Shown here one piece after another: positions 34,700 to 63,052 of a DNA stretch of 64,000 nucleotides. Every line of letters begins with the position of its first letter. Positions within the stretch are counted from its first letter, which is position 1. The notes below the pieces were generated by a model that saw only the letters and a list, made by a program, of their open reading frames with translations, did not search any database and was not told the origin of the DNA. The translations under genes and the position numbers were made by a program. The DNA lies in NCBI GenBank assembly GCA_964187785.1, contig OZ076409.1, positions 17,610,001 to 17,674,000 of the forward strand, in the 5' to 3' direction. This DNA comes from Amphiscolops sp. MND2022. Taxonomy: Eukaryota.

Positions 34700-35050
34700 T
34701 TATAAGCTGTAACGTATACCGGATATAACGTTCCTTGGAGATTTTTTTCAAAGCTGTAGAAAGTGCTAGGGAGTCCCCCTCGACAATAACGCAACCCATA
34801 CCGGATTTAGTGCAAACCGGATACAACGAATTCGGATATAACGTATACTAGAAATAACGTTTTTGGATAATTTTTTAGTTACAAAAGGGTCCTTTCTTTG
34901 GGTTTTTTCTATTTGTTCATTTGCTCAATTTTTTCAGTTTGATCAACCCGGATTTCAGTTCGAATATAACGTTTCAAAGTTCGGATATAACTTTTTTAAT
35001 GTTAAAGTTCGGATATAACGTTTTCAAAATTCGGATATAACATTTTCATT
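34700..35050. repeat. MITE-like fragment with multiple CGGATATAACG repeats; related fragment at ~20835-20965
   Basis: The repeated (TT)CGGATATAACGTT motif occurs at both loci. Confidence 0.6.
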
Positions 35051-38000: not shown

Positions 38001-40115
38001 ATATTGGGCAAGATGTTTTGAGTTCATGCTTTCTGAGTCAATTTCAGAAGCGTCTCCTTTTCTTTTGGTTTCAGAATCCATTCAAATATATAAATAAATA
38101 TATAATAAAATATAGTTGTCGGGCTAGTTGTCACAAGTTGGATTGCTTTCATTGTCACTACACGCTTCGTTTTTTCCTGTTGAAATCCCAAATATGTAAC
38201 TTTTTTCCACAGTTTAGCTACCGTCACTTTCGTTTTTTTGGCGTTTTTTCACCGTATTTAAGCAGCAGCAGTAATTAAGAAAAATTAGTCCAAAAATTGA
38301 GTCTTGTGCCACCCACTGCAACGAATAATTGCTTGTTCAGCCAAGGTTGAGAGCAGAGCTAACGGTAGTTTGGTTTATCCAAGTCGAAGGGTCTTTGCTA
38401 ATGAATGCTCAACTCAGCATGTAATTCAAGAGTCACTTTTTGAACTGAATTTTCCCCAAAACAGTGACGTAATATGGACACTGAATGTTTTCCGTTAATT
38501 TGGATTCATACCAAGCATCAAGAAATTCTTGGAGGCATTCGTAAGTTCGCAGAGGCATTTTTCAAGAAGTTGTACTTCAAATAATTTGAGAAATCTAAAA
38601 ATGAAATCGAAACCGTGTGTTTGTTCACTACTATGATTTTTTTCTATGAGCGAGTGAAATTTTTTGTTTAGCCATAAACAAAATGAATCAGTGTTTTGAA
38701 GAAATGATTCAGTTCGACTTTAGTCAACGCAACGGCAAAGGATGTAGATAATTGATAGCTTTTACCTTACTTTTAGTAATACCAAATTACAGTAATTTGT
38801 ACTTCTCTATAAAATAGACGAATATATACAGATACAGGGAAGTTTTCAGGAACAAATTTGTGATGAATTGAACTTTTGATTTTAGAGAAAGTTCAAAACT
38901 GAGCTTCAGCTCTTTTCATATATATTTTTTTCGCGTTGAAGTCTAGCCAAATGGATTTTTGAGGTTTCTTAACACTATGGTAGCCTATAGGCTGTCATGA
39001 GCAGTTGTTTCCATAATTGATGATTTTTTATCAGAGGAAAAGTTATGGAAGTTTCCCGCTGTGAGCCCGAGGGCTTCTACATTAATTGTCATCATCAAAT
39101 AACACAATCTGACCTTGAAATCTCATTCAATGACGTCATTGTTAGGCAGACAAAGACCCTGAAGTCGCTTCTAACGAAAGACGTAATTTGGTTCAGCTTT
39201 TTTAAACAGACAACTTCCATTTGAACCAGGCTGCAAAATAGCAGACATAAAAGCTAGTTAGAAAGTTTTCATTTCGATATAGATATTTTTTCTGTCTAAG
39301 CGTGTGAAAAAGTATTTCGAATTGTTTCTTGATAATTTTCCTGTAAAAACCCTCCTGCAAATGACATCTAAATTATTTCAAGTCCAAATTTACAGCTGTT
39401 TCGAACTCTTATTGATTTATTTGTGAATTTTGACTACCCTGGTTGACACCCCAGAGGTATATCAGATGTTTCGTAGTCTGGTTCAGAGGACCCAGAGATT
39501 TCTTAGTCTGAGAACAGATATGGCCCCAGTCGACGAGGTCTCAAAAATCACTGGCATTTGGAACTGTTCATTGAACAAATTTGACAAGAAATTTTACTTG
39601 TATTCTTTTGTTTTTTATCCAAATTGGAACTTCGCTGTCCAAATCATCCACGACCCGCCAATCAGCTGCAGAACGCAATATAGGGATTGAAAATGGCCAT
39701 TTCCAGCAAAGTTATTTCTCATGCAAAGAGGGCCAGAAAATTACAATTACGTATTCTGAGTGGCAAGCAACTGTTGAAACTACTACAGCGAACCATTTTT
39801 CCAGAACATTACAAAAACAGCTTTGAATCAACAACTCTACTCAAAAGTAGTACTCACAAGGAGCTCATCACATGCCTAATTTCATCCGCCAAAACGAAGT
39901 CAGTATGGCAAACGAGCATCCTAAGGCTCAACAACCACTGTTGAAAAGTTCGTGTGAAATGGATAAGGTACCATGTAAAGCCAGTATCGAACACTATCCA
40001 CCCGGGTTGACCCTCAATCGATATCTTAGTAAGATCTTGGCAAGATCTCGGAAAAATCTTAGCTAAGATCGTGCCAAGATATTGCCAAGAACTGCAAGAT
40101 CATGGTAAGATCTTA

Positions 40116-40276
40116 AGTAGTAGTGGAAATCCCGATACTGGCCACAAAAACCCCAAAAATTAAAAGTCCTCAAAACCATTGATTTTAAGGACTTTTTAGA
40201 AAACAAATCATCAAAAATAGTGTTTTTACCATGAAGCAAAATTCACTAACCTCTATAGTTTAATGTCAACGTTGCA
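40116..40276 (+). repeat. Polinton left TIR
   Basis: Reverse complement of 54530-54690, with 2 mismatches seen (CCCGAT/CTCGAT and TAATG/TACTG). Confidence 0.97.
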
Positions 40277-40309
40277 ACCAGCGTTCAATGTGTAATAATA
40301 AAATTTTGC

Positions 40310-40415
40310 TGTACAACCAGCGTTAATGCACAACCAGCGTTAATACACAACCAACGTTAATGTACAACCAACGTTAATGCACAACCAACGTTAATGTACA
40401 GCCAACATTAATGTA
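40310..40415 (+). repeat. 17-bp subterminal tandem repeat (~6 copies)
   Basis: (CAACCArCGTTAATryA)n lies just inside the left TIR. Confidence 0.9.
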
Positions 40416-40461
40416 CCGGCGCATACGTTATTCTTATATAACTCCAACTAACATTGATTCG

Positions 40462-40579
40462 TCTCCCATAGCTTAGTGGTTATAGCATTGACTAAAGTTA
40501 AGGCTTCGGCCGGAGTGTTTGGGGTTCACTTCTAACCAACGTCCCCCAGTCTTTGTTACAACTTACATGCTATGGGAGA
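40462..40579 (+). ncRNA. Candidate Pol III-type structured RNA (VA-RNA-like)
   Basis: Perfect 11-bp terminal stem TCTCCCATAGC/GCTATGGGAGA, A-box TAGCTTAGTGG, a GGC-TTCG-GCC tetraloop and a degenerate B-box GGTTCACTTC. Confidence 0.4.
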
Positions 40580-40735
40580 ATAATCACCAATGGCACAGTT
40601 CTTAAAAAGGATAATCCCTGCTGTGGAAACTCTTAGTGGAACGGACTCCCGATGGGCTTTGAGTTTACCATAGGCATGTCAATACCAATGGCATGCCTAT
40701 GGGTTTTGTATTTTTCAACTTTTTCATCTTAATAA

Positions 40736-41563
40736 ATGTATGAAACTCCGTCTCTTCATAAGTTTGGTTATTCTAGTGAACAGCTAAAACTGAGGGAATA
40801 TCAGGAGCTAAAAGATATGATAAAAAGTCAAGAAAAATTAGCCCAAATAACACATTCCAAATTAAAAGAAGATTTGCAACGAGATTTTGAAAATGACATA
40901 GAAAATCAAGTAGAAGAAAAAATGCTAGACGCGACAGCTTCCGCGGTAGCTATCGCGCAGGCGCATCAAACACTAGACCCACAGGAACTTCAAGATGTTT
41001 TATTAAACACAAAGTTAATGAATGATATTTATTCCCAGTTTTCAGACCTTTCAAAAACCATAAATAAATTAGAACAAGGTATGAAAAAATCTTTCGCCGA
41101 ACAAAGAACTGCTTTAGTAAATGAGGTACTAAATTTAATACACAACAATAGTTTTGAAATGGTAACAGTCCGTAATTTAAAGTTTATGAGTCAGGTGGGT
41201 CAAGCTGGAATGATTTTAAATGAAGATGAAATAAATAATATTCTTAATAGCCTAGATCAAAATAAAATTACTATAACTAACAACATAATTCAACTGCTTC
41301 ATGACAAAGGTTTGTTCGATTCCTTTCCCAATAAAGATCAAGCTTTTGCAAATTATCTAACTTTCAGTGAAACATACCTCTTGGAAAAGTATGGAAAAAC
41401 AATATCTACTTCAGATGGTGAATATTATCTGTCTGATTTAGAATATTCTACCAGACAATCAATTCTGGAGTCATTGAAAAAAAACAATTTTAAAGATCTT
41501 GTTGATACGAAACACAGAATGAAATTAACACCAAAGGAAATAAATTTCATTTTATATGATTAA
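40736..41563 (+). CDS. Polinton hypothetical coiled-coil protein (275 aa)
   Basis: Intact ORF starting at AATAAATG, with a helical, charged composition. Confidence 0.8.
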   Translation: MYETPSLHKFGYSSEQLKLREYQELKDMIKSQEKLAQITHSKLKEDLQRDFENDIENQVEEKMLDATASAVAIAQAHQTLDPQELQDVLLNTKLMNDIYSQFSDLSKTINKLEQGMKKSFAEQRTALVNEVLNLIHNNSFEMVTVRNLKFMSQVGQAGMILNEDEINNILNSLDQNKITITNNIIQLLHDKGLFDSFPNKDQAFANYLTFSETYLLEKYGKTISTSDGEYYLSDLEYSTRQSILESLKKNNFKDLVDTKHRMKLTPKEINFILYD

Positions 41564-41566
41564 TAA

Positions 41567-42280
41567 ATGGAACAAAAACTCTATCCCTCCCTGACCCCAA
41601 CGGCCTCTCCCCCCGCACCATATGATGTAGAATCAATGATAAATAAGCGATTGCAAAGCGCGTTGCAAAACGAATTACAAAAAGTAAATAGCTTCAATAA
41701 TTCTATTCAAAACATTAGTCTAATGATGAAATATTATGAAATGGAAGAAAAGAAATACAAACAGAAATACAACAAATACAAGCTAATAAATAACCTAATT
41801 AACTCCCTCGATGGCATTATAGTGATTGGAACAACTTCAGCATCAATCTCACTAAGTATTACTGGTGTGGGTATTATAGTTGTTCCAATCGCTGCAGGAG
41901 TTGGTTGTACAACTGGTATTCTTGTTAAGATTTGTTCCAGTTATTTGAAGAAGAAGGAGCAAAATTATAAACTTAAGTACGCTATTATTCAGAAGACTCT
42001 TGACGACTTTAGACAACTTTATGTTACTAGCCTAAAAGATAATCATATAGATGAAAAAGAATATCGCCGATTTGTGACTCAATTTGAAAATTATCAGGTA
42101 GCTTCACAGGAAATTCACACAAAATCACGCGCAGCTTCGCGCACAGCTTCGCATACAAAATCACAAGTAGCTTCACACGCGACAGCTAACGCAGCTTTGC
42201 ACGCGACAGCTACCGCGACAGCTAACACAGCTTCGCACACACCACCAACAATACCACTTAAACCACACAATTTTTTATAA
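41567..42280 (+). CDS. Polinton predicted membrane protein (237 aa) with a Gly-rich hydrophobic hairpin
   Basis: GIIVIGTTSASISLSITGVGIIVVPIAAGVGCTTGILV lies between coiled coils; the N-terminus contains LYPSL. Confidence 0.8.
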   Translation: MEQKLYPSLTPTASPPAPYDVESMINKRLQSALQNELQKVNSFNNSIQNISLMMKYYEMEEKKYKQKYNKYKLINNLINSLDGIIVIGTTSASISLSITGVGIIVVPIAAGVGCTTGILVKICSSYLKKKEQNYKLKYAIIQKTLDDFRQLYVTSLKDNHIDEKEYRRFVTQFENYQVASQEIHTKSRAASRTASHTKSQVASHATANAALHATATATANTASHTPPTIPLKPHNFL

Positions 42281-42392
42281 TTAATTTATTCAATTTTAAC
42301 ATAAAAAATAAAATAAAAATTAACACTAATAATTGAAAAATATACTATTGAAAAATATGCTGTTATTAAATTCATAATTTTATTATAAATAA

Positions 42393-45300
42393 ATGGAGAA
42401 CTGCAGTATTTGTAATTCTGATTATAAAAAAGCTTACAAGTCCGATCATCTAATATCAATAAACCATTTACAAAAATTAAATCAATATTATTGTAAAAAA
42501 TGTAATACATTTATGCCATTGTCTGACAAGTCTAATCATCTAAATTCAGATGAACATAAAAACAAAACCAAACAACAACGCGAAGCTACACAAATTTGGT
42601 GTGAAGATTGTGGTAAATATATAAGTAATTCAAGACATTTCCAAAGTGAAATTCACACGTTAAGAATTCAAAACAACGCTACAAAAAACACATTTGGTAA
42701 TACACTACATGATTCTGGAACTAACGTAGGAACTAACGTAGAAATAATTGTGAATGAAAAAACATACATTAAACTGAGAGTAAATCCAACAAATCATCTT
42801 GAAGAACAGATTAATGATTTACTAAATAAAAATTACTTTCCCCGATACAAGTTCCAATTGAGTTATTTAGCTAAGTTTTCAAAAATAGTTAATGGGCAGA
42901 GCTTCGCAGAAGAAGTTGTATTTCACAAATGGGTTAAATCAGATTTTAATTACAATCACACGCAGATTGCTTTCGGCACAAACCCAAATTTTCACAACAT
43001 ATTAATGCAGAAATTAGATGATGAACAATTAGAAGGATCAGGTTTTGTGTTAAACGGTATTGTCAATGTTATATTAGAAATTTATAAAGTCAATGATATT
43101 CAAGCTTCTTCATGGGTTGAGTTGCCAGAAAAATATAAGAATAATAAATCAATTATAAATATAAAAAATGATGATCAATTTTGCTTTTTGTGGTGCATCC
43201 TAGCACACCTTTTTCCCGTTGAGGATCATAAAAATAGAACATCAAATTATTCAATGAATCTGAACAAACTCATTTTAAATGGTTTAGAATTCCCCATGAA
43301 AATTAAAGATATTCCCAAGTTCGAAAACTTAAATAATATAAACGTAAATGTATTTGAACTCACAAAAACAGTTTTAACACCAATCCATATCAACACAAAC
43401 TATGATCAACTACAAATAGATTTATTATTATATCAAAATCACTATTGCTTAATAACAAAATTGCATTGTCTAATAAATAAGGATTCGCACATGAAATGGG
43501 TGTGTAGAAGATGCCTAACTGCATTTAGTTCTGAGGATATTCTCAGTCAACACATTGACCGTTGTCAAAAACAACAACCAAATAATATCACATTCAGTTG
43601 GAAGGATCACTTAAAGTTCGAAGATTATCATATGAAAGTTCCCATACCAATAAGAGTATATGCAGATTTCGAATGCATTAATCAACCAACAGACGACCGC
43701 GAAGCTGCGGCAGCTATTGCGCCCAAAGTATTATTTAAACAAATTCCAATTGCAGTAGGATTTTATATAATTTCACCATTTGGTAATAATTACAGCTCAT
43801 ACTTTGGTGAATCGTGTGTAACATGGTTTGTAAATGAAATGTTGACTCTAGAAAACATTGCTAGTAACTATTTTGAAACAAATTTGCCTCTTGACATAAC
43901 TCCTGAAGAACACCAATCATTTCAACAATCCAAAGTGTGTTGGCTTTGCGAACGAAAGTTAGACGGTGAGGATAACGTTCGAGATCATGATCATCTTACA
44001 GGCAAGTACCGAGGAGCAGCCAACAACAAATGTAATTTAAATTGTAAAAAAAGTCAAGTTCGTTTGTTCCTATATTTTTCCATAATTTCAGTGGTTATGA
44101 TTGTCATTTAATTTTTGAAGAACTCTTAACATCAGCTTATAATCTAAAGTTACCAATAAATATTATACCAAAGTCAATGGAAAATTATGTAAGTGTTCAA
44201 GTAGGTTGTTTAAGGTTTTTAGATTCATACAGATTTTTGAGTAGTAGTCCACAAAAACTTATAACATCATTAAATGATTTTCCTTATATGCAAAATGAGG
44301 GCCTAACTGATGATTTATTTAAAAAAAACTAGCTTATCCATACGAAAAATTCAATCTTAACAACCTGCATGAACCACTAAATCTAACAAAAGAGGACTAT
44401 TGGTCAACATTAACACAATCTCACCCATGTGAGGATGATATAAAAAGAACCCAACAATTGATTGACACTTACAACATTACAACAGCACAAGAACTAACAG
44501 AATTGTACTTAAAAATGGATGTACTACAACTCACTGACGTGTTCGAAAACTTTGTTGAGAAGTCTACACTTGAATACGGAATCAATCCTTTGTACAGTTA
44601 CTCTTTACCTGGTTATACATGGAAAGCTGGTTTAAAACTTACTAAAATTAAATTAGATTATATAAAATGTAAAGAATTATTATTACTTTTAGAAAACAAT
44701 ATACGTGGAGGAATTTCAAGTGTTATGGGACCCAGATTCATTGAGTCAAATGAAAATACTAAATTACTGTACATTGATGCAAATAACTTGTATGGATGGG
44801 CAATGAGTCAATACCTCCCTACTGGAGACTTTAAAAAGATGCGTAGCTTCGCGCAGAACTGTCACGAATCTGATTCTGCACTGATGAATGAAATTACAGA
44901 AGACATTTTGAATACACCAGATGACAATGAATTTGGATACTTTATAGAATGTGATTTAAAATATCCAGCAAAAATTAAAGAAAAAACCGAAAACTTTCCA
45001 CTTTGTCCTTATCAAACAAAAGCCGATCCAAATCTTTTCTCAGAATACATGAACAGTGTAAAACAATGCAACTACAAACCAACCGAGAAACCGATGTGTG
45101 ACCTAACAAATAAATATAATTATATGATGCACTACAGAATGTTCAAGTTTTACACCCAGATCGGGATGAAAGTAACAAAGATTCACACAATCTACTGGTT
45201 CAAACAATCACTTTGGTTAGAAAAATACATTAATCATAACACACAAAAACGCACCAAAGCAAAAACAAACTTTGAGAAGGACCTCTACAAATTAATGAAC

Positions 45301-46259
45301 AACGCTTTCTTTGGTAAGACTATGGAAAATGTTAGAGACCGGACTAATTTAGAGTTTATCCCTCACACCAATATTGATGAAATAATAAAAAGACAATCGA
45401 AGTTAAGCTTTAAAGGAATTACTAATCATTACTCCGAATTCAGTGTTTACAAGTTTGATAAGGAAAAAGTAATTTTTGATAAACCAATATACTTGGGGTT
45501 TAGTGTTTTAGAACTGAGTAAATTGTTAATGTATGAGTTCTATTATCACAAATTACAACCATATTATAACAATAAAATTAAACTGCATTACATGGATACA
45601 GACTCATTCATTCTAAGTATTAAAACTGGAGACCTTATAAATGATTTGGAATACTTCAAAGATGATTTTGATTTCAGCGAGCTCGACCCAAGTCATGAGT
45701 TGTACAACTCAATCAACAAGAAAGTTATAGGTAAAATGAAAATAGAAAAATCACCAATTATTGAATTAGACAACTTCGTAGCTTTGAGATCTAAATCATA
45801 TTCTTTTAGCTATGGCTCAGCACAAAAGCTAACGCAAAAGCTAACGCAAAAGTCAAAACAAAAAGGAATACAACATACACCAATTTATTCACAATTTATA
45901 CATTATTTAACTCTGAAACAACAACTGCAACTAATTATTCTATTAGAAGTAATGCTAACAATTTAACTGTTCAGAAACAAGATAAGCTAGCTTTGAATCC
46001 TTTTGATGACAAGCGTATGTACTTGAATCCAATACAAAGTTTATCATGGGATAAACACACACAAAAAGGTGATTGTCCTTGTATACTTTGTATAAAATTA
46101 GTTGGCTTGTATTACACCGAACTGAGCACAAGGGATGGCAAGTCCGCGCAGCTTCGCCTTCGGGATGAAGAAATATACTATAACATTTGGACTCTGAAAG
46201 AAAAATTGAATCATCAACAGCTTTTAAATCTGATAAGTGATCGGGCCCATTTATTGTGA
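42393..46259 (+). pseudogene. polB: Protein-primed family B DNA polymerase with N-terminal Zn fingers, an OTU-like and an EndoVII/HNH-like domain; three frameshifts
   Basis: Exonuclease motifs YADFE, HNFSGYD and YLKMDV; polymerase motifs YIDANNLYG, KLMNNAFFGK and YMDTDS; C-terminal LNPFDDKR. DQFCFLWC..HYCL is OTU-like and VRDHDHLTGKYRGAA..CN is EndoVII-like. Frameshifts fall at ~44050 and ~44325 (A-runs) and at ~45900. Confidence 0.95.
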
Positions 46260-46383
46260 TAACTATCGTGATAACTATCGTGACGCACAGTTTCGCGATA
46301 GCTTTCGCGATAGCTTTCGCGATAGCTTTCACACACATCATTTATAATTAGAAATATCATTTATTATAATATTATCATTAGTC

Positions 46384-47631
46384 TCATATCAAATCAAAAT
46401 GCCTTTGCCCATCACTACTAATACTTATTAGTTTTGGGGTTAATACAAGTGCATAAGCTATATAATCTGCTACATCAATGGCAGCATTAAATTTAAATTC
46501 TAAACGGATTGGTTGACTCGTAATGATATCCTTTTGTTTGCTGAGGTCAAATACATAAAAATTATAATTTGTTCTGAATTTGTTCAAATCAATGAAGGGA
46601 TTGAGTAGGTTAGTTTCACTATTCAAGTGATAAAAGTTTTCAATTTCACTATATGCTTGATCATATTTGTCGCGGTCGTAATCACATTCTATCCCATCAT
46701 CGGGATATTTTTCTGATCCTATTTTACAAACAGCATTACTAATTGGCAACCGGTCAAACACTGCATTATCATGAACCTGAGAATCAGTTTTATTTCTAGC
46801 TTGAAATCCAACAATCACAAAAGTTGGAGTCGATGTTCCCGAAGATCCGCCTGCGCTGCCTAACTCAAATGTCCAATTCGAATTTGTGTTAACATCTTTT
46901 CTAAAAATAATTCGTTCTGTGTAACTCAATTCGGTTGGATCTTTATTTAGAATTTGGTCCATGACAAGTTGTTGGTTTTCGATACTGGGAACATAGTGTG
47001 GGATATACCAACCAATGTCTTTAATAACCACTTTTGCAGCATCCACTCCAACACTTCTTAAAATGGCGTCATTGTTAGAGTTCCGTTTGAGAGTTAATGT
47101 GTAGCCCAACCCATAAGTTATTTTTTCTTGATCAGCAAATCCAAACAAGTCTTTTAGTTTTATTCTCACAAAAAAGGTTCCTTTCTCATTTTTGTTGTTT
47201 GTTAGTTCTTGTCTTCTAATAGTAGTATCTTCTTCAAACCCATACATTAATTGACTTGTGGATTTAGTGCTTGTTAGAAGTTTATACATTAAAGAAATCA
47301 AGTGCAAATTGTCAACTTTTTCTAGGTGTTTCCCACTAGAAGTTGTTAATTTGGCTTCACTAAATAGAGAGATTGGCCCAAAGTTAACCAATCCAATTTC
47401 ATCACCGTTGGTGTATCTTGTGTCGTTGTTTTTAAGTACTTCAAATTCTAGACTTATGAAACTATTTTGTAAACATATGTATGCATCTTCTCTTGGGAAA
47501 CTAATTGTAGTATTCGAGTTTGTATTGTTAATTGTCGCCAAACTACTTGGACTATACTTTATGAAATCAATTTTATGAATAGGTTTTTCAAGAGGGTATT
47601 TATTTTTTAAAGAAAACATATCTGTGTTCAT
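46384..47631 (-). CDS. Major capsid protein (double jelly-roll), 415 aa
   Basis: Size, beta-rich pattern and Polinton MCP-like segments (SFISLEFEV, SLFSEAKL, PTFVIVGFQ, YVFDLSKQ, IRLEFKF), in Polinton context. Confidence 0.85.
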   Translation of the reverse strand: MNTDMFSLKNKYPLEKPIHKIDFIKYSPSSLATINNTNSNTTISFPREDAYICLQNSFISLEFEVLKNNDTRYTNGDEIGLVNFGPISLFSEAKLTTSSGKHLEKVDNLHLISLMYKLLTSTKSTSQLMYGFEEDTTIRRQELTNNKNEKGTFFVRIKLKDLFGFADQEKITYGLGYTLTLKRNSNNDAILRSVGVDAAKVVIKDIGWYIPHYVPSIENQQLVMDQILNKDPTELSYTERIIFRKDVNTNSNWTFELGSAGGSSGTSTPTFVIVGFQARNKTDSQVHDNAVFDRLPISNAVCKIGSEKYPDDGIECDYDRDKYDQAYSEIENFYHLNSETNLLNPFIDLNKFRTNYNFYVFDLSKQKDIITSQPIRLEFKFNAAIDVADYIAYALVLTPKLISISSDGQRHFDLI

Positions 47632-47667
47632 TTATAAAAAAAAATTATTGCGAAACTACGTGGAACA

Positions 47668-48576
47668 CTACTCAAATTTGTGGAAATTATTCATACTTTC
47701 TAACGTTTTGTTGTTAGAGTCAAAGTCGAATATGCTACTTAAAAGTTCTTGTTCATAGTATTTTCCTTGAATAATTTCTCCGTTTTCATCATTTAGAGTG
47801 TATGTTACTGGGTTTGTTTTGTTGATGCTGTGTATTTTAAAAAGTTCTCTATTCCAATTTGTTGTATAACCTTTTGAATAAATGTTCCTTTTCTCAGGAA
47901 CTCTTACAAAATCTCCCACTTGGAATTTAGGTAATTTATTGTTATGATTATTATTATCATTTTTGGGTATCAGATTGGGCGAAGCTGCGGTAGCTGTCGC
48001 GCGCGAAGCTGCACAAAAACTCATTTCAAAAGGTGTCATTTTTGTTGTACCATGCACCCTATTATTATACTTATCCAAAGCAGCATCAAGGTGATTCAAC
48101 CAGTTACCTTTACCCTCAATATACATTGGTTCTTTGATTAAGTCCAGAAGTGTTCTATTGAAACGTTCAACAAAAACAGCCTTCAAATCTGAATGGGTTG
48201 AATAAATTTGAATGTTTTGCTCTTTTAAATAGTGTAAAAATGTTGTGTTGTAAAACTGTTTACCTCTATCACTCCAAATTTTGTGTGGTTTTCTTTTCCT
48301 AGTTTCCAATAAATTCTTGAATGCAGCAGTTGTACTTTTTCCTGATTTATCTTTGAGGGGAATCGCCCTTGCATATTTGGTATGATTGTCAATTATTGTA
48401 AAAATAAACTTGTAGTTTTTGTTGTATTTGCCTAAACTTGAGCGATCAATTAAATCAATACTCCAACATTCATCTTTATAGTGAGTTTGTATTTGAATTC
48501 TTTGAAACTTCTTGATTACAGGAGAGAATATTTCTTTAACAATTTCTTTCTTGCGAAGCCCTGCATTTTGATTCAT
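47668..48576 (-). CDS. Retroviral-type (rve) DDE integrase, 302 aa
   Basis: Motifs WSIDLID, IDNHTKY, WSDRG, VERFNRTL, KFQVGDFVRV, KGYTTNW and YYEQEL. No chromodomain is visible. Confidence 0.95.
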   Translation of the reverse strand: MNQNAGLRKKEIVKEIFSPVIKKFQRIQIQTHYKDECWSIDLIDRSSLGKYNKNYKFIFTIIDNHTKYARAIPLKDKSGKSTTAAFKNLLETRKRKPHKIWSDRGKQFYNTTFLHYLKEQNIQIYSTHSDLKAVFVERFNRTLLDLIKEPMYIEGKGNWLNHLDAALDKYNNRVHGTTKMTPFEMSFCAASRATATAASPNLIPKNDNNNHNNKLPKFQVGDFVRVPEKRNIYSKGYTTNWNRELFKIHSINKTNPVTYTLNDENGEIIQGKYYEQELLSSIFDFDSNNKTLESMNNFHKFE

Positions 48577-48610
48577 TTATTATAGTTTTATAACAATTTT
48601 TTATAAATAA

Positions 48611-49855
48611 ATGAATAATGATTATTGCTTGCAGAGCTATAGAAATAATTATCAAGGTGAAGGAGCCGGCGCGAAAGCTAGCGCGGGAGGCGGCGCGGGA
48701 GCTGGCGCGGGAGCTGGCGCGGCCAATTGGTATCAGAAAACACGAATCTATAAAGTAACCACAAATCCTATGTTTATTGTATGTTTAATTTTATTTATAG
48801 GTATTATTGTTGTAATATATTGGAATTATATTCGTCCTAGACAGTTGAAAACAATTCATAAAAAACTACTACAATTTGCAGGGTTCAAATACTATCATCT
48901 GACAAACCAGGAACGCGAAGCCCCCCAGGATACACGCGAAGCTACGCACAACAACTCACATAACAATTCTCATTGCAACGCGCATTTCATAATCTATGGC
49001 AGTAGTGGCTCTGGGAAGACAAGTTTTTTAAAGCATTATTTGGCACAACGTCCCCACGACAAGTCCTGTGATAGCCCCCGCGATAGCTCACGCAGTTATT
49101 TAGTATTTGGGAGAGATGAACGTGAGTTTCCCTCTCAAAATTTTGTACCACTACTGCAGTTGGAGAAAGTTAGTATTGAATCATTTGCTAATAAAATTGT
49201 TGTACTGGATGATGCAGGTGCATACAAGAACCTTAGATTGAAAGTAGAAGACCTTTTCCGATTTGGTAGACACTTGGGGATTCAAGTGATTTACCCTGCT
49301 CACTATGCAAAGGATGTTCTTCCAATCGTGAGGGAAAATTGCTTCAAAATATACTTGACAATTAATTACCCAGATATTTTCTTCGAGTCGATTGGACAAA
49401 CTTATGCAATAGCTTCCACAATCAAAGAACTTAATTGGAAATACTACCGGGATCAGTTAGAATATGGCGTAATTGAACTGGACACAAGGAGTCAGAAATT
49501 TAAGATACTAAACGACAAGTACAACTTAATTTATGATTCGAGCAAACGAAGTAAATGGGGTCCAGAACAACTCGTTGCCTATGAAAGTTACTTTTTCACT
49601 GGTGATGAATATAACAAACTCAAAATTTTCTTAGAGGAAATGTCCGACCAGACAATTGAAATAACACCACTCAACATAGCTTATTATTATGTAGCATATT
49701 GCAAACAAAATAATATTAAAGTAAATGAATCCAAAATAGAAAACTACGTTGAGCGTATGCAAAAACCACTAATTAGTGATTCAGTTAAAGAGGACTTTAA
49801 AAAGTTAATTTATGATCAGGCAAAAAGTTTTACTAAAAATAAACTGAGTAATTAA
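48611..49855 (+). CDS. A32/FtsK-like ATPase 1 with N-terminal transmembrane segment, 414 aa
   Basis: TM segment MFIVCLILFIGIIVVIYW; Walker A GSSGSGKT; Walker B VVLDD; Arg-finger motif FGRH; VREN. Confidence 0.88.
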   Translation: MNNDYCLQSYRNNYQGEGAGAKASAGGGAGAGAGAGAANWYQKTRIYKVTTNPMFIVCLILFIGIIVVIYWNYIRPRQLKTIHKKLLQFAGFKYYHLTNQEREAPQDTREATHNNSHNNSHCNAHFIIYGSSGSGKTSFLKHYLAQRPHDKSCDSPRDSSRSYLVFGRDEREFPSQNFVPLLQLEKVSIESFANKIVVLDDAGAYKNLRLKVEDLFRFGRHLGIQVIYPAHYAKDVLPIVRENCFKIYLTINYPDIFFESIGQTYAIASTIKELNWKYYRDQLEYGVIELDTRSQKFKILNDKYNLIYDSSKRSKWGPEQLVAYESYFFTGDEYNKLKIFLEEMSDQTIEITPLNIAYYYVAYCKQNNIKVNESKIENYVERMQKPLISDSVKEDFKKLIYDQAKSFTKNKLSN

Positions 49856-49877
49856 CGAGAAATTAACAAAAAAAATA

Positions 49878-50105
49878 TAGTGATTCTTAGAGAAGTTTAG
49901 AGAAATTTAGTGATTCTTAGAGGAATTTAGTGATCTCTAAGAATCTCTAAATTTCTCACTAAATCACTAAGGTTTCACTAAGAGCATTATCTTAGAGAAA
50001 TAAATACTCTCAGAGGAATTTATTGAAACCTTATAGGGATTTAGTGAATTTGGCTTAGTGAAATTTAGTGATTACATAGTGATTATTAGAGGAATTTAGT
50101 GATTT
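49878..50105. repeat. Intergenic cluster of AATTTAGTGATT/CTTAGAG direct and inverted repeats, including a 23-bp hairpin
   Basis: 49900-49922 GAGAAATTTAGTGATTCTTAGAG pairs with 49935-49957 (22/23). Confidence 0.85.
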
Positions 50106-50117
50106 TTTACTAAATAA

Positions 50118-51194
50118 ATGAATTGCTTAATTTGTAATAAAAGTAGTGAAAAAAGTTTGTGTGATGATTGTATTGATAAAAAAAGATGTAAGGAATGTAA
50201 TATTATGAAGAATTGTAATACTTTTTATTCATACAAAAATGGTAAAACGTACTCTTCATGCAGAGTATGTTTTAATAAAAAGGTGAGGTGTGAATTTTGT
50301 AATAAGGATTTAAATAAGAGTTATTTAAGGTCACACATTAAAAAACAACACTTGTATCAGCATTATAATCGCGAAAGCTATCGCGACAGCTATCGCACAA
50401 ATATTAATACCGGGGGTGACTTGCTACCCACGCAGGGTTATTCGCGACAGCTTCGCGATAGCTACCACACACATAATAATAATATTAATGATAATAATGC
50501 GATAGTTATCGCGAAAGCTAACGCGGAAGCTAACGCGGAAGTTATCGCGAAAGCTATCGCTAATGATGATGATAATAATAGTGGTGTGAACGAAACTAAT
50601 AGAACATTAATAGTTGGCCCATCATTTTGTGGTAAGACTCATTTGTTGTTGAATAAATTACGATTGATTCGTTTGGAAGATCCAGAGAAACAAATTCGTA
50701 TCATTACAAGGAGTCCGAAACAATATGAGGATGTGAAACTAGATTTAGAACTACGAGATATTGAAGTGGAAGAAAATGTGGGGGATTTGGAAGAGTATAG
50801 GGGGTGTTGTGTAGTATTTGATGATATGTTAGACTCCAACCAGAAATTGATTGATCCATTTTTTTCTAGGGGAAGACACAAATCTTGTGATGTTTATTAT
50901 TTATGTCAGAGTTATTTTGATGCACCAAAAAAGACAGTTAGGAACAATTCGAATATAATAATTTTATTTCAACAAACACTGAAAGATGTAGAACATATTC
51001 ATAGGGACATATCAGGTTTTGATATGTCTTATGAGGAATTCAAAAGTTTGTGTAGAGAAGCATGGAACGAAAAATTCAACTACCTTTTAATAAACAGATT
51101 GGAAGATAAAAATGGGAGTAGGTACAGGATTTGTAATGAATCTAATCCAAATTACAAGATCTTTAATCCACAAACTGATCCTTTAAGTAATTAG
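50118..51194 (+). CDS. A32/FtsK-like packaging ATPase 2 with N-terminal Cys-rich Zn-binding region, 358 aa
   Basis: Several CxxC pairs; Walker A GPSFCGKT; Walker B VVFDD; RGRH; QSYF; VRNN. Confidence 0.92.
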   Translation: MNCLICNKSSEKSLCDDCIDKKRCKECNIMKNCNTFYSYKNGKTYSSCRVCFNKKVRCEFCNKDLNKSYLRSHIKKQHLYQHYNRESYRDSYRTNINTGGDLLPTQGYSRQLRDSYHTHNNNINDNNAIVIAKANAEANAEVIAKAIANDDDNNSGVNETNRTLIVGPSFCGKTHLLLNKLRLIRLEDPEKQIRIITRSPKQYEDVKLDLELRDIEVEENVGDLEEYRGCCVVFDDMLDSNQKLIDPFFSRGRHKSCDVYYLCQSYFDAPKKTVRNNSNIIILFQQTLKDVEHIHRDISGFDMSYEEFKSLCREAWNEKFNYLLINRLEDKNGSRYRICNESNPNYKIFNPQTDPLSN

Positions 51195-51210
51195 GGACTT
51201 CGTGAGGAGA

Positions 51211-52237
51211 TTAGGAGATCAAGTTGCTTTGTATATTTTGGTGTTGAGAAGGTGATATGCATTCATACTCCAATAACTTGTCTATAATTGCAATAATTTG
51301 TTCATTAATCAAAAACTATCATTTCCTCCAACTTTTTCAAAATAAAGTAGTTTCAATTGATCCACTAATTCGTCTGGGTCAGATGGGAGGAAAATGTACT
51401 GTTGTGTGGAACTTCGCGAATATTCACCATTTAATCCACTTCCTGTGAAGCCCTGTGATTGGCCCTGTGCAGAGCTCCCCGCGAAGCCCTGCAAATCATG
51501 TGCTTGTGTGTAGTCCTGTGTAGAGCTCCCCGCGAAGCCTTGCGTGTAGCCCTGCAATTGATAGCGAGAGTATAATTCTTTAATAAATTGATATCTGATT
51601 GATTTTTATTTCCATAATTTAGATCATATTTCATATCATTTAAGAAGTTATAAATTGAGTCCCAGTTATTTATTTGTTTGTCAAATTGTGTATTAGTTAT
51701 AAAATATTGAAGATCTGTGTCATTTAAATTGTATGAATTCCCATTCTCGAAAGTCATTGTTGAACCTTTGATTAGTACTTGTTGTGGGTTATGGGGATTA
51801 ATTGTGAATAAATTTGTGGAGCTGTGTGGATAACCTTCTATGGGTTCTAAACTAAATTGACTTTTGTTTTTGTCGTTAAGTAAATTAGAAACTGTTTTTA
51901 CAATACTAGAATCAACCTGGTTGGAATTAACAAGACTTGTAAGAAGCTGATTGTTATGATTTGTAATTTCATTATATTGTTTTATTCCTTCTTTAATAGA
52001 ATTTTGAAGAGTATTATTATTGTGTTCTATTGCTCTTGTCTGATTTTCAATGGCTTGTAGTTGTTTTTCATTTGATTCCACCTGCTTTGTAGTAACAGGT
52101 TCAAAAACTTCTTCAAGGTCATAATGAAAGTCTTGCTTCCCTAGTTTCTCTTTTAATCTTTCTTTGTGTACTAAAGATTTTGTTTCTTGTAATTTTTTTA
52201 AATTTTCCAAGTCATCTGGGGTGTGAATTGAATACAT
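51211..52237 (-). pseudogene. Conserved Polinton protein with C-terminal LPSDPDELVDQLKLL..GGN motif; two frameshifts
   Basis: ORFs 51431-52237 and 51309-51557, plus the continuation LINEQIIAIIDKLLEYECI ending at 51211, join through homopolymer frameshifts (~51605, ~51312). Confidence 0.75.
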
Positions 52238-52263
52238 TTATTAAGTATAATTAATGCATATAA

Positions 52264-52728
52264 CTAGTGGATTTTCCCCAGATACAGGCCTTTACTATTA
52301 GTTCTTGCTTTTCTGCCTTTACTCGACAAACCTTCAGCTTTGTATAGGCCCTTCCCTTGATGAACAAATTTAATAACGTCGGGGGCTGTTGCGGCTATCA
52401 TCCGAGGATTTTTACTTGCTGCTGCAGTTCCAATATTCGCTGCTATTTCTAGTGAACGGCCTGGGTTATTGAGTATTTTCTTTCCAACATTTTTGACTGC
52501 AGAACCTAAATGTTTGAAAAAGTCTCCCAATCCTTCCGCATCTACTGTTCGGTCAGATACAATTAGACTCTTATTTCTGTTACATATCATGCAGTTGCCA
52601 CGTAATATTTTTACGGGCCTGCCCATCTGTATCCCAGTGTTTGTAATATCTCCATAAATATTTGTGGTGGGAGAATAATGTTTTCCACCAACACAATATG
52701 AATTATTTATAAATTTATTATAACTCAT
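52264..52728 (-). CDS. Small basic core-like protein with a Cys/His motif and an amphipathic helix, 154 aa
   Basis: YCVGGKH..CMIC motif; GLGDFFKHLGSAVKNVGKKIL helix; repeated GKGLY/KGLYLG. Confidence 0.75.
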   Translation of the reverse strand: MSYNKFINNSYCVGGKHYSPTTNIYGDITNTGIQMGRPVKILRGNCMICNRNKSLIVSDRTVDAEGLGDFFKHLGSAVKNVGKKILNNPGRSLEIAANIGTAAASKNPRMIAATAPDVIKFVHQGKGLYKAEGLSSKGRKARTNSKGLYLGKIH

Positions 52729-52767
52729 TTATTAGAAAAAAATTTTCATTTTTTCCCAACGTCATAT

Positions 52768-53822
52768 TTAGGTAATTTGAATTGTGAAGGTGAGTGTCTC
52801 CCCGTTGAAATCAACTGAATCATGATTAGAGTCCTCAAGGAAAAATTGAATGGTGTCCAGTCGTGTTTTGTTAATTGATTTGTACAAAACAGTTGTGGGT
52901 TCTTTTATAATTTTATATCCGGGAGGTGCGCTTAAATTGAAAGAAAATAAAATTTGTTCTCGTATACCATTAACAATTGAACCATCTACACATTCGCACT
53001 TCAGATGAACTTTGTCGGTGGTTGTTATCATGACTGGTTTTTCTGAAGTGTGAGTTCTGGATGGGTAATCACGTTGTGTAAAACCCAGGACTTTGTTAAG
53101 TTTGGAGTTAAAATGAATAGGGTTTGAGGTTGTTAAAACTGATTTCGTCGATATTGTGTCGGGTATTATGTTGAATTCAATACTAAAAACTGTAAGATCT
53201 TTTTTGAATTTTGACTTATCATCTAATTCATAACCTGAATCAGTAATTCTTTGTTTTATGGTATTATTTATTTCAATCAGTTCGTATACACCTGGAACTA
53301 AATTTATATCAATAAACTCATTCTCAATTTCAAAGTTTGGAATAGTTATAGGAATGTTGCTCTTCATTTGTTTTAAATAGTCAAAATCTTTTTTCGGAAG
53401 TTTCTTCTTTTTTTATAACTAGTAAGTAAATATATATTAGCTTTTTCTATAAATTCATAGTAAAGTTTATTATTTTCTAAATCATAAGTTTCAAATAGTT
53501 TTTTTATATTTGGCACCACTCCCGTGTCAAACTCAAGTGCATCGAGTTGTCGATCATTTAGAATAATCTGTAGTTTGTTATTGCTGTTAGTGATATTATA
53601 AACTGTATTGTATACTTCTAAACTTGTTACTCCCATCATCCATTTTTCATTTAAATTGAGAGGAATATCAAATGAGAAAGATTCTTTTTGTTTATTCATT
53701 TTAAATTCTAGAGTTTCTTGTGGTTTAGAATGAGTATTTTCAACAATTTCTTGATTAGATTTTGCAATACTTAAAAGAAGAGATTCTTTTTTATCATATG
53801 TTACGAAGCTTGACAGATCCAT
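52768..53822 (-). pseudogene. Minor capsid protein (penton, single jelly-roll), split by one frameshift
   Basis: N-half WMMGVTSLEVYNTVYNITNSNN; C-half PGVYEL, FSFNLSAPPGYKI and VDFNGETLTFTIQI. The frames join across the T-run at ~53410 (KKKLPKKDFDYLKQMKSN). Confidence 0.88.
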
Positions 53823-53825
53823 TTA

Positions 53826-54074
53826 TTATAGATTAAATTGTTTGAATCCACTAGCGGAAATGTTATTTATAAATTCTTGCCTATCTTTTGATAATGTTTT
53901 CTTATGCGATAGCTTCCGCAAATTTCTTGTATTTTTTCCATGATTTTGATTTTGATTGTGAAGCTGTTCTGTGGAGCTGTGCGTGAAATTTTGTGCGTTA
54001 GCTGTCGCGAGAGCTGGCGCAAAGCTGCGCGAGATAATTTTATATTGAGTTGAATAATTATTAATTTTCTTCAT
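53826..54074 (-). CDS. Small basic Polinton protein, 82 aa
   Basis: Starts at AATAAATG overlapping the protease stop codon and fills the gap between the protease and penton genes exactly. Confidence 0.65.
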   Translation of the reverse strand: MKKINNYSTQYKIISRSFAPALATANAQNFTHSSTEQLHNQNQNHGKNTRNLRKLSHKKTLSKDRQEFINNISASGFKQFNL

Positions 54075-54502
54075 TTATTAAGTTTGAAAGTTTGGTAGTA
54101 TAAATTTAGTACTGCATTTTTGAACCCAATTTTATTTGTGAGATACAGTGTGTATAAACAATACGCCGCGCAATAACTGTCGTTGGTCTGAGTTTGATAT
54201 TCTGAATAAATACCATTTTTAATATGATAAAGTATATTAGTTGGGGGTGGGCATCCATATGAATCAAAATAATTTTGATCTGTAAACATAACCCAATGTG
54301 TTCCTTTAGTTGGATGTAAGTTAACTATACCACTGGTAGTGGTAAATTTATCATCTCTCATGTAAATTCCTGCTGGGATTGTTAGTTTATCAAGAATTTC
54401 CTTTATTTTTACATTGGAAGTTGCTTCGTTTTTTAATCCATATTTTTCAATAAAGTCTTTGAATGAGAGATAATTGCGAAGCTGTGTTAACTGTCGTGCC
54501 AT
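54071..54502 (-). CDS. Adenain-like cysteine maturation protease, 143 aa
   Basis: GTHWV (His), YFDSYG (Asp) and QT..SYCAAYC (Gln/Cys). Confidence 0.92.
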   Translation of the reverse strand: MARQLTQLRNYLSFKDFIEKYGLKNEATSNVKIKEILDKLTIPAGIYMRDDKFTTTSGIVNLHPTKGTHWVMFTDQNYFDSYGCPPPTNILYHIKNGIYSEYQTQTNDSYCAAYCLYTLYLTNKIGFKNAVLNLYYQTFKLNK

Positions 54503-54529
54503 TTATTAGTTATTTTTCATTGTTGTGTG

Positions 54530-54690
54530 TGCAACGTTGACAGTAAACTATAGAGGTTAGTGAATTTTGCTTCATGGTAAAAACACTATTTTTGATGATT
54601 TGTTTTCTAAAAAGTCCTTAAAATCAATGGTTTTGAGGACTTTTAATTTTTGGGGTTTTTGTGGCCAGTATCGAGATTTCCACTACTACT
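54530..54690 (-). repeat. Polinton right TIR
   Basis: Inverted copy of 40116-40276. Confidence 0.97.
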
Positions 54691-57230
54691 ATCTTATCAA
54701 AAGAACCATGTTCCCAAGAAAAAGTTTAATGCAAAATCCTATTTGGCCAGAAAAAAATGTGAAAGGAAGTCAACAAAAATCAACATTTTTGCCGATTCAT
54801 ATTGTTAGACATTAAAATATCTGTTAGCAAGGTAAAAAATCTTATTGAAGAGTCCTTATGCTTTCTATTTAGGGATCCACTGATTTCATTGTTCTATCAA
54901 TTGCAGAACTGTCGCCAACAACGGCGTCAGAAAAGCTTCGAGCTGAATCATTACCCAAACTGGGGCAATGACCGTCGTTTCTAGCAGTAATAAGGCTGCT
55001 GAAAGAGGCTCAAAGATAACAGGAGATATGCATTTACAAAAATTTCCGGATTTTTACATGTTTCCTGTGTAACTTTCCGATATTGGCTCTGGACATTTTA
55101 GAGCATTTTTCTCTGTTTCTGAAATAGACAGGAGTAATAAATTACAAGTTTTGGAATACCCACGAGATGAGCTTTCATTTGGAACATTTGCATTTCCCAG
55201 TCTTAAACAGGTGAGCAGTTATTAGGATTCTCGTCAAAATTTCGGAAGCCAGAATACGTTATCGTAATTTTTCACGCATTTTTGCATGCAAAATTTTTTC
55301 AGCAGGTTTAAGCATTTTGATTATGAAAACGAGTAGAAATAGTGGTTGTGAAATGAGCCTTCAGATTGAGTCTCACCTGCTTTTACTGAAGGAATAGTGT
55401 TTTTTTATAATAGAACTTTCTCCATCGTGATAAGATACGATCTTGGAATAATGTATTATCTTAGTAAGATCTTAATAAGAATCTTGCTATTTGATCCATG
55501 GTTGCCAAGATGTAGTAAGAATTTGGCAAGATCTTGCCAAGACAGCCAAAATGCTAGTAAGAGGGTCAACCAGGGCAGTCAAGAAATCTATCTTACCGGG
55601 TACAGGAGTTTCTGTCCGGGCTGCGGAATCTTGAATTGATCCTTTCTAGCTCGGAGTGGAGCTAGTTTTATAGCTGTCCAGTTTTTGAGGGAAGCAGTTG
55701 TTCAAGTGATCGCTAAAAAGACTAGTTTATCTGACGTTTCTGAGTCTAGAGTCAAATCTGGGCCAGAGATTTTGTTCCAAGATCTTGTCACGGGGATTTC
55801 TTCTTTAAGACGTGGCGACAGATCTGACCAGAGACTCACAAAATTCTCTGGGATGGTCAACCGCTTGATTTGGTCTACTGTGTTTCTCAAGTTACGTTCT
55901 ATATACCACAAATGAGGAGAATCTTTCGAAAGTTTTGATTCTGATTAAAAGATTTGGATTCAATACTGAAATGAAATAGGCTTCTCTTCTGAAATGAAGC
56001 GCAGACCAATCGATAACCAAGATAATAAAAGGTTTTCTTTAGTTGACTCAGCTCATTCATTATGGCACGTGTCTTTCTGGCTGTGAAAGATATTACTCCT
56101 CATATCCGGGGTTGCCTGACATTACAGCGGGTTGTAAATCTAGGGGTGTCTTACTCTCGGAGCAGGCCTGGCTCTTTTCTGTCCCCCCCACCACCAAAAT
56201 TTTTGAAAATAACATTCCTTAAAAAATTTAGACTAGCCTTCTTAAAAGTAAAACCTTCTTTCATAGCAGGAAGTTAGCTTCTATTAGAGTAGTTTTCTGC
56301 TTGAACAAAACATTTTTCTCACATTTTGACTGTGAATATTTTGGAAATTAACTGTTTTTAGTGACTCAAAACAGGAAGCTGTTGATTTCTTCATCAATAA
56401 TGCGTAACTACATAGGGAATAAGTGTGCGTATAGTTTGTATCTGAATTCTAAAGTATCGGCCCGAGAATAAATATAAAACTGAAGCTTCTGGTTTGTATT
56501 CAAGTCTATTTGTTATAAAATTTTCACTGATTTTCCAAAAACAAATTGGTGGTGGTGGGGGGTTTCAGAAAAGAGCCGCAGGCCTTATAATAGAAGCATT
56601 ACAGTGTTTGTGCATTGAAACTCAAGTGAAACAAGGGTTTGATTCTTCATTCCTGCATTTCAGGAACAAGAGACTTCTACTGAGCAACCACAACAACGGA
56701 CTAAATCATGGGGACTTTGGGGCGCAACAGTTACATCAGTTGTTGCAGCTTTTGGTGGATGTGGGCACCTCTGCTGAAGAACTTCTTCAAGCCCTGCCTC
56801 TCTCGACCCACCCCTCCCCCAGTAGAGAGACCTCCAAGCGGCCATCTGTCGACCTCCAGAGGGCGTCGCCCCTCAGAACAGCCAATCAGGGGTTAGTATG
56901 TTGGTTACGTCAAAAATTGAAGACTGTTTAATGATTATTGGTAACCATCGATCGACATATCGACGTAAATTGCTTGTTTTTGTTGGTCGGAGCTTTATCT
57001 TATTGGATAAAGGAAAGAAAATAAAAGGCAAATAAAGTTCCAAAACGAAGTAAATTGCGATAATAGAACCGATGTTCTTATTGCAATATTTCAAAAACTT
57101 ATGTGTCAATTCAAAGAAGACTTAATTGCGAGTTATTTATTCAGAACTCTTTCATGTATCAAACATGTACCGAAACGTGAATACAACCAATGACACTAGA
57201 AAGTCGATGTCAAAAAATCCAAGACGCCGA

Positions 57231-57575
57231 TTAAGCACCTGGATTTTTTCCGCTGTCGGAACGACTGTCAGTACTTGCAGTTGCTGAATTTAGTCTGTTC
57301 CCTTCTCCATTAACGGAGGCAAACTGATTAGTTAATGTAAGGACTATGCTGGTAAGGTCTCCGATTTGTCTATTTATCTCATTAAATCGTTGGTCAATGC
57401 TATAATTACTGCTATTTTGACGTCTAGTTAATACGTCGTCAGAGTCAAGGTCTACGATTTGGTCTCTGGATAAGATATCAGGGAAACTGGATTCACTTTC
57501 ATTATCGCTTGATTCGTCCATGTTTTCAGCTTCTAATTGTCTATTTTGACTACTTTGAGATCTAGTAGTTACCAT
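57231..57575 (-). CDS. Gag-like N-terminal ORF located inside the LTR; runs out into flanking DNA in this 3' copy
   Basis: Starts MVTTRSQ, has an acidic tract and a coiled-coil, stays open to the LTR end (..DSRSD) and then reads 7 flank codons. A homolog is present in the solo LTR. Confidence 0.6.
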   Translation of the reverse strand: MVTTRSQSSQNRQLEAENMDESSDNESESSFPDILSRDQIVDLDSDDVLTRRQNSSNYSIDQRFNEINRQIGDLTSIVLTLTNQFASVNGEGNRLNSATASTDSRSDSGKNPGA

Positions 57576-58375: not shown

Positions 58376-58389
58376 TTCCCCCTTTTTTG
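58376..58389 (-). other. Polypurine tract
   Basis: A purine run of the form A6-G5-AA on the minus strand directly precedes the LTR TG. Confidence 0.85.
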
Positions 58390-63040: not shown

Positions 63041-63052
63041 GGGATGGGTGTT

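Follow-up and report, generated by a model that had tools for sequence, protein, structure and literature searches.

The stretch of DNA analysed here, called the window throughout, comprises 64,000 nucleotides of Amphiscolops sp. MND2022 (contig OZ076409.1, positions 17,610,001 to 17,674,000), and it contains a virus-like mobile element whose genes start at one short motif, TAAATG, in which ATG is the start codon (TAA-ATG in the counts below). The element spans 40116-54690 (14,575 bp), which is more than the 40731-54507 given in a preliminary description made from the letters alone; it is bounded by 161-nt terminal inverted repeats that are 99% alike. The ends are AGTAGT and ACTACT, and a 6-bp target duplication, ATCTTA, flanks both sides. 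AGT ends and a 6-bp target duplication are typical for Polintons/Mavericks, and the element is an endogenous Polinton/Maverick (adintovirus). What it has in common with the Polintons/adintoviruses are terminal inverted repeats, a protein-primed family B DNA polymerase (pPolB), an rve integrase, a packaging ATPase, adenain, hexon and penton (PMC8502044; here and below, statements about cited papers refer to the available parts of their texts). In Pfam the integrase matched PF00665 (E 3e-10) and the capsid protein PF21738 (E 2e-22), and an insert of the polymerase was recognised as endonuclease VII and one ATPase as A32-like; the family-B homolog of this packaging ATPase matched Pox_A32 at E 3e-12, and ATPase 1 matched it at E 1e-4, just under the cut-off. 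The protease family matched adenain (E 6e-7). Two genes are broken in the window copy, the polymerase into open reading frames (ORFs) 42393-44111, 44515-45966 and 46017-46259, and the penton into 53373-53822 and 52768-53367. The polymerase pieces did not match PF03175; it is matched, at E 2e-14, by an unbroken homolog with which they share 53% identity. The model of an unbroken family-B homolog of the penton (model confidence, pLDDT, 80) fits the fold of the mavirus penton (E 4e-11). The C-terminus of g9 is out of register compared to the sister copies. Protein atlas searches with g1 and g9 were blank, Rfam gave no match for the element, and no Pfam match to an RNA polymerase or a capping enzyme was obtained in 14 ORFs of the window or in 12 sister ORFs, several small ORFs being without a family. 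The features are listed in Table 1.

Table 1. Features of the Polinton, in window positions
Feature	Position	Strand	Remarks
Left target-site duplication ATCTTA	40110..40115	+	
Left terminal inverted repeat	40116..40276	+	Starts AGTAGT; 161 nt; 99% complementary to right copy
g1, 275-aa protein, family A only	40736..41563	+	First gene; TAAATG 40733-40738, no ORF upstream
g2, 237-aa protein, hydrophobic segment	41567..42280	+	Common to A and B; TAAATG 41564-41569
Protein-primed family B DNA polymerase with endonuclease-VII insert	42393..46259	+	TAAATG 42390-42395
Possible 13th gene, 128 aa, antisense to polymerase tail	45955..46341	-	TAAATG at start, again at 46360
Major capsid protein, double jelly-roll, 415 aa, open frame	46384..47631	-	PF21738; TAAATG 47629-47634
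rve integrase, retroviral-type, 302 aa	47668..48576	-	TAAATG 48574-48579
34-nt spacer separating divergent start codons	48577..48610	.	Two back-to-back TAAAT promoters (putative)
ATPase 1, Walker A and B, family A only	48611..49855	+	TAAATG 48608-48613
Zinc finger and A32-type packaging ATPase	50118..51194	+	TAAATG 50115-50120
g9, conserved Polinton protein	51431..52237	-	TAAATG 52235-52240
g10, small conserved protein	52264..52728	-	TAAATG 52726-52731
Penton	52768..53822	-	TAAATG 53820-53825
g12, 82-aa protein	53826..54074	-	TAAATG 54072-54077
Adenain-type maturation protease	54071..54502	-	First gene from right end; TAAATG 54500-54505
Right terminal inverted repeat	54530..54690	-	Ends ACTACT on + strand
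Right target-site duplication ATCTTA	54691..54696	+	
GC-rich 12-nt tandem units	42169-42216, 45823-45852, 46291-46330, 48662-48722, 50368-50396, 50499-50560		

When the start codons were examined it was found that ATAA directly precedes the ATG at all 12 named starts, as had been described, and that 11 of them have the form AATAAATG and the start at 47631 has the form TTATAAATG. Only 18 of the 486 ATGs on both strands of the element are preceded by ATAA, namely these 12 starts and 6 of the 474 others (hypergeometric P 5.9e-20). TAA-ATG heads 10 of the 166 short ORFs (10-59 aa) in the element and one of the 10 ORFs of at least 120 aa in the rest of the window, and these low rates exclude an artefact of ORF calling. 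The ORF starts without the motif are 44515, 46017 and 53367, all of them internal pieces of the broken polymerase or penton; the preliminary description had listed 53367 as the sole such start. The 128-aa ORF that starts at 46341 on the minus strand also bears the motif and recurs in 8 of the 16 copies described below, and its status as a gene is uncertain.

The host genome (1.07 Gb, labelled G000) was searched for further copies. A first look for the capsid gene gave 2,901 candidates, which are not copy numbers, and 101 of them when scored gave 102 matches of 91-100% identity; the chromosomes carry at least a hundred copies, which lie on 13 large contigs, and the insertions are young. At 30 sister loci TAAATG was present at 29 of 30 capsid starts and at all 29 ATPase-1 starts. 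Of 17 further loci that were fetched, two without a pair of terminal inverted repeats were left out and the other 15 together with the window copy made up 16 elements, in which the starts of ORFs of at least 75 aa were counted if their families were present in at least two elements, fragments being kept apart. Lineage A capsids are 85-98% identical, and lineage B has capsids of 43-44% identity, another gene order, two unrelated polymerase types and a U-box gene. It had been proposed earlier to look for the motif in sister copies and other Polinton families, and it is kept in both A and B: TAA-ATG heads 169 of the 199 non-fragment starts, TAAAT lies 0-5 nt before the ATG in 12 more, and the 18 starts with neither are mostly single-base variants, residual fragments, antisense frames and the zinc-ribbon gene in 3 copies. 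Internal fragments had TAA-ATG in 5 of 61 cases. TAAAT is kept where it stands apart from the start codon (TAAAT-ATG, TAAATA-ATG and TAAATACTT-ATG), and therefore the conserved unit is TAAAT, like the vaccinia initiator (PMC6211774). Lineage-B genes without homologs in A, i.e. a different polymerase and the U-box, zinc/HNH-like and fibre-like genes, carry the motif as well. In sublineage B3-B5 the other polymerase type (PF03175, E 2e-20; L063:3519-6641) and a U-box/DUF4116 gene (L063:3010-3483) are both motif-bearing. Metagenome relatives (L129-L137) had the motif at 14 of 18 starts, and six of them form a third lineage with a capsid about 48% identical to those of A and B; in a more distant metagenome relative (L138) TAAAA is found in place of TAAAT. 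A mosaic copy (L290-L292), in which a capsid module of A type is found together with the zinc-ribbon gene and a polymerase of B type that bears the intein, has kept the motif, and it shows that modules are exchanged between the lineages. Positions -4 to +3 differ in 0-1 of 25 copies while the flanks vary. The capsid is under purifying selection, the median ratio of nonsynonymous to synonymous substitution rates (dN/dS) being 0.22 over 300 pairs (25 stop-free frames among the 30 best loci). The integrase start is shifted in 8 of 29 copies by an 11-nt indel between two ATAA words, and for this reason it was not counted as an independent re-creation of the motif.

In vaccinia the late consensus consists of TAAAT, usually with a G after it so that it runs into the start codon, and of a T that is conserved 10 nucleotides upstream (PMC11980589). 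When 72 non-redundant Polinton contexts were anchored on TAAAT, the T profile peaked at -11, -10 and -9, with 47, 49 and 47 Ts, respectively. A T at -10 was found in 49 of the 72 starts compared to 195 of 577 non-start TAAATs (binomial P 1.7e-7). Of the 13 starts in the window by itself, 10 have T at -10 and 11 have at least two Ts at -11 to -9, the latter compared to 42 of 142 (Fisher P 1.5e-4). The contexts also have an A-rich shoulder at -13/-12. Of the ATAAATG proposed in the preliminary description TAAAT(G) is what is conserved across lineages, and the unit common to the lineages is TAAAT(G) together with the upstream T-run. In all TAA-ATG starts the T at -3 is fixed. Ordinary translation by capped scanning is poorly served by a T at this position.

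The same genome contains a further lineage of Polintons, family D (G000:C2:44148764-44163075, comprising L284-L286, and L287-L289 and L293-L295), with a polymerase about 30% identical, a capsid without similarity and 41% GC; D1 has the same AGTAGT ends and 6-bp duplication. None of their 43 starts has TAA-ATG and 29 have a purine at -3, and as both families reside in one genome the motif is not imposed by the host. The host H3, H2A and H2B starts have GAG, ACA and GTG before the ATG, i.e. a purine at -3 and no motif in any of the three; these histone genes are repeated in long tandem arrays whose unit measures about 3.63 kb (L090-L119). H2B and Pol epsilon of the host have an animal-type look. 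In seven IMG/VR Polintons of the same capsid family TAA-ATG was found at none of 79 starts, in four IMG/VR loci with a related polymerase at 5 of 28, and in 80 mostly giant-virus loci at 57 of 519. Since family D and five of the IMG/VR relatives lack it, the motif marks one lineage; it is real and lineage-specific. The other two of the seven, L296 and L297, are AT-rich and have TAAA, with a few As after it, at most 9 nt from the ATG (L296 at 14 of 15 starts, L297 at 9 of 14) and a T-run upstream. This looser signal is possibly a sister initiator, and related initiators may therefore be wider spread. Other helper-type motifs near the starts were AAAATTGA (3), TAAG (12), TATATA (13) and TCTA (39); none stands out, the count for TCTA being about that expected from composition by a hand estimate. 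The late signals of African swine fever virus and pacmanvirus are TATA-type (PMC7458399, PMC11788076), which leaves the poxviruses as the nearest match among the motifs compared.

These observations lead to the question of which RNA polymerase reads the motif. A probable explanation, judging from the sequence, is that TAAAT(G) and the T-run form a two-part late promoter that a co-infecting large DNA virus would transcribe with its RNA polymerase. That this helper is specifically poxvirus-like is plausible but we hold it less firmly, the label being taken from the likeness of the promoters; as nearly every gene is headed by a pattern of the poxvirus late type, the element would likely be reliant on such a helper. 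Like the late promoters of poxviruses (PMC11980589, PMC6211774), those proposed here have TAAAT(G) overlapping the ATG and a T at the 10th nucleotide upstream among other Ts. Unlike in vaccinia, the signal is present at each gene start of an integrating element of 14.6 kb without a detected RNA polymerase, has the A-rich shoulder and is known from sequence only. In vaccinia and in the yeast cytoplasmic linear plasmids pGKL, transcription initiates in the AAA and slippage yields a 5' poly(A) leader (PMC6211774). The pGKL plasmids, with a TAAAN initiator, are protein-primed linear elements like the Polinton; an RNA polymerase and a capping enzyme are encoded on the plasmids themselves, and a capsid is not, whereas the window element has a capsid and no detected RNA polymerase (PMC6211774). 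By analogy with poxvirus biology, the helper would supply the RNA polymerase in a co-infected cell, and transcription would start inside the AAA of TAAAT and slip, giving a non-templated 5' poly(A) leader that turns the poor context with T at -3 into AAA-AUG. Such a leader would explain why the T at -3 is fixed. The 34-nt divergent spacer between the integrase and ATPase 1 is too short to contain promoters and leaders apart from each other. Every gene, those for the polymerase and integrase among them, would be switched on late in a helper-infected cell, like those of mavirus. Replication by the element's own protein-primed polymerase would follow, then packaging in its own capsid and insertion into new chromosomal sites by its integrase.

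An independent hint of contact with giant viruses may come from an intein. A database homolog of the lineage-B polymerase carries intein domains, and in the host genome 25 intein matches were obtained among 30 candidates (e.g. L145:1477-2508), many of them in stop-free frames of 1,537-1,541 aa. The intein lies between YMD and TDS, with Ser as its first residue and His-Asn at its end. The same insertion site is used in 101 of the 119 top intein homologs, nearly all of which are in family B polymerases that are not protein-primed; two of these polymerases match Pol delta best in PDB. In IMG/VR, GVMAG names, which we take to denote giant-virus metagenome-assembled genomes, were found on 9 of the best 10 and on 32 of 80 loci. 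Fungi, algae, protists and viruses are the carriers given in a survey of eukaryotic inteins, whose available text has no hit for 'animal' (PMC5784728), and possible intein-derived endonucleases in pPolBs have been mentioned (PMC11161782). Our literature search, to which subscription journals were largely closed, found no paper on an intein in an animal Polinton.

Several points weigh against helper-driven transcription. The promoter and helper reading is drawn from DNA sequence, and a cytoplasmic viral polymerase would need access to nuclear copies. The motif is short and AT-rich, and the zinc-ribbon gene is without it in 3 of 4 copies. Tested per element, the T-run gave P <0.05 in 14 of 16 and was not significant alone in the other two; position -10 was taken from the vaccinia paper but the -11 to -9 window was picked after the profile had been seen, and the 72 contexts include homologous genes and related copies and hence are not independent. 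The frames behind the dN/dS value were best hits free of stops (25 of 30), which biases the set. As for the intein, the polymerase of the window copy lacks it, it shares only about 40% identity with the viral relatives, and in a FastTree tree of 48 sequences with a midpoint root it groups with three inteins of other protein-primed polymerases (support 0.987), so that no direction or date of transfer is claimed; the link may be old, and it would point to giant viruses generally and not to poxviruses. The preliminary description had also proposed a search for marker genes of large DNA viruses, and in the host genome assembly no relic was found: Rpb2 gave three loci, family B polymerase four (the two checked being zeta and epsilon) and capping enzyme one, all of host type only, and searches for VLTF3, the capsid of nucleocytoplasmic large DNA viruses and poxvirus D13 were blank, but here the controls were also silent. 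The helper-virus promoter proposed in that description thus gains from the conservation among sisters and lineages, the T at -10 and the absence of the motif from family D and histone genes, and gets no support from the genome in the form of a viral relic. Scans of viral contigs with single capsid, integrase and polymerase proteins and with one capsid alignment gave no relative. The zinc-ribbon protein of lineage B (L056:1907-2419) had faint matches to A2L and the TFIIB ribbon, which at E 0.06 are sub-threshold and were seen in 1-2 of 18 members; nothing was found for it in PDB or among 711 viral ORFs, and its model has a pLDDT of 43.

The missing relic would also fit a nuclear promoter for the host polymerase, i.e. 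an unusual RNA polymerase II initiator that gives nearly leaderless mRNAs, perhaps with a factor encoded by the element and with no helper. The high copy number on 13 large contigs and the young insertions are easier to understand without a helper, and the faint A2L/TFIIB-ribbon matches could be such a factor. We consider this unlikely, since neither the family D Polintons nor the host histone genes use the motif, T at -3 is poor for capped scanning and a TATA-like reading would put the transcription start inside the ORF. Moreover, the zinc-ribbon gene is absent from the window element and g1 from lineage B, and the genes common to all motif-bearing lineages are also present in relatives without the motif. 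Slightly less probable still is that the promoters are a relic of an ancestral dependence on a helper and that the copies are now nuclear transposons expressed by cryptic or read-through host transcription. Broken genes in many copies, the window's included, the lack of a helper trace in the genome and the apparent age of the intein link are in keeping with this; a relic, however, is difficult to reconcile with a motif that is near-invariant amid variable flanks, is carried by sublineage-specific genes and is kept in the mosaic of A capsid and B polymerase, or with the purifying selection on the capsid. Finally, that the motif is a by-product of compact AT-rich packing (upstream stop, AATAAA, stop-restart translation or an A-rich Kozak context) is very improbable and largely refuted, for although AATAAA is part of 103 of the 169 motifs and 69 of the 169 starts are at most 60 nt from the end of an upstream ORF, the TAA serves as stop codon of the upstream gene in only 4 of 169 (which also disposes of the alternative considered earlier, AATAAA as poly(A) signal or upstream stop), in 96 of 169 no ORF of the same strand ends within 60 nt upstream, AATAAA is present in 85 of 106 starts of family A but in only 18 of 63 of family B, compact viral DNA as rich in AT (the AT-rich subset of the 80 loci) gives 38 of 256, and the T peak at -10 and the TAAATs uncoupled from ATG are left unexplained, so that together with the controls these counts show that host context, AT-rich packing and poly(A) signals do not account for it.

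Transcription by a helper's polymerase has precedents among integrating small dsDNA viruses. Mavirus and the endogenous mavirus-like elements (EMALEs) of Cafeteria, and the Polinton-like virus (PLV) Gezel-14T, have helper-type promoter motifs like the one proposed for the window element (PMC10945749, 10.1101/2022.07.28.501842), and different endogenous EMALE types in one genome have different motifs, as do A/B and D here; only the type with the late motif of Cafeteria roenbergensis virus (CroV) responds to CroV (PMC10945749). Those systems have protist hosts and Mimiviridae-type helpers, with AAAATTGA as the motif for Gezel-14T, whereas here the motif is poxvirus-type and the element an animal Polinton. 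It also differs from strict virophages such as mavirus and Sputnik in its capsid, which is PF21738-type with Polinton relatives and not virophage-type; the element may work like a virophage though it is not classed as one. A link between Polinton-type elements and animal poxviruses, like that proposed here, is known for the PLVs of entomopoxviruses, AHEV_PLV1 and AHEV_PLV2 as well as CBEV_PLV1, two of which are described as divergent members of the Maverick-Polinton capsid clade mavpol2 (PMC11296320). These came from occlusion bodies, are about 12 kb and in one case are without a detectable integrase; here the link is through the promoter architecture of a high-copy chromosomal family. In the available text of that paper there are no hits for 'promoter', 'motif' or 'TAAAT', and in that of the adintovirus paper, which gives no promoter signal, none for 'promoter' (PMC8502044); the window element has a putative one. 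A literature search, with preprint supplements and most subscription papers outside it, found no paper on a TAAATG motif or such promoters in animal Polintons. Helper-promoter mimicry in protist virophages and entomopoxvirus-associated PLVs are already known, and the poxvirus-late-like signal of this animal Polinton lineage is best read as mimicry of that kind.

To the question of how animal Polintons are expressed, and whether they are autonomous, a two-part signal and a co-resident lineage free of it bring a sharp test, and the motif offers a way to sort animal Polintons from sequence alone into likely helper-dependent and host-transcribed classes. A further-reaching picture, which is tentative, is of an endogenous virophage-like Polinton lineage, with up to thousands of capsid-gene matches in one genome, that would be a parasite of a poxvirus-like virus yet to be discovered in a non-insect invertebrate, would reveal the class of its helper by its promoters, would have host-transcribed Polintons as neighbours and would have carried a giant-virus-type intein into the chromosomes. 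If the promoter reading is right, this host should have a large DNA virus that has so far gone unseen, and a virophage-type antiviral defence in an animal becomes a possibility. As a parallel only, Mavericks make up 4.5% of one acoel genome (PMC6451197).

Some further features of the window were noted. Just inside the left terminal repeat is a 17-nt tandem repeat of 6.3 copies (40310-40416). The GC-rich 12-nt tandem units of Table 1 have self-complementary cores, lie within family-A ORFs and encode Ala-rich stretches that vary among copies. The insertion site of the element lies within or next to a family of 11-nt palindromic tandem repeats (40023-40114 and 55470-55545) that is also present at 26644-26711. 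A 310-bp satellite of about 30 copies with 95% matches occupies 1-9325, and at 31789-35646 there are 41-nt imperfect inverted repeats 3.8 kb apart with direct repeats between them, possibly another DNA transposon. Broken retroelement-like ORFs lie on the minus strand at 12926-15732 and 57231-63952, and by their appearance they are presumably LINE-like (long interspersed nuclear element) and Gypsy-like.

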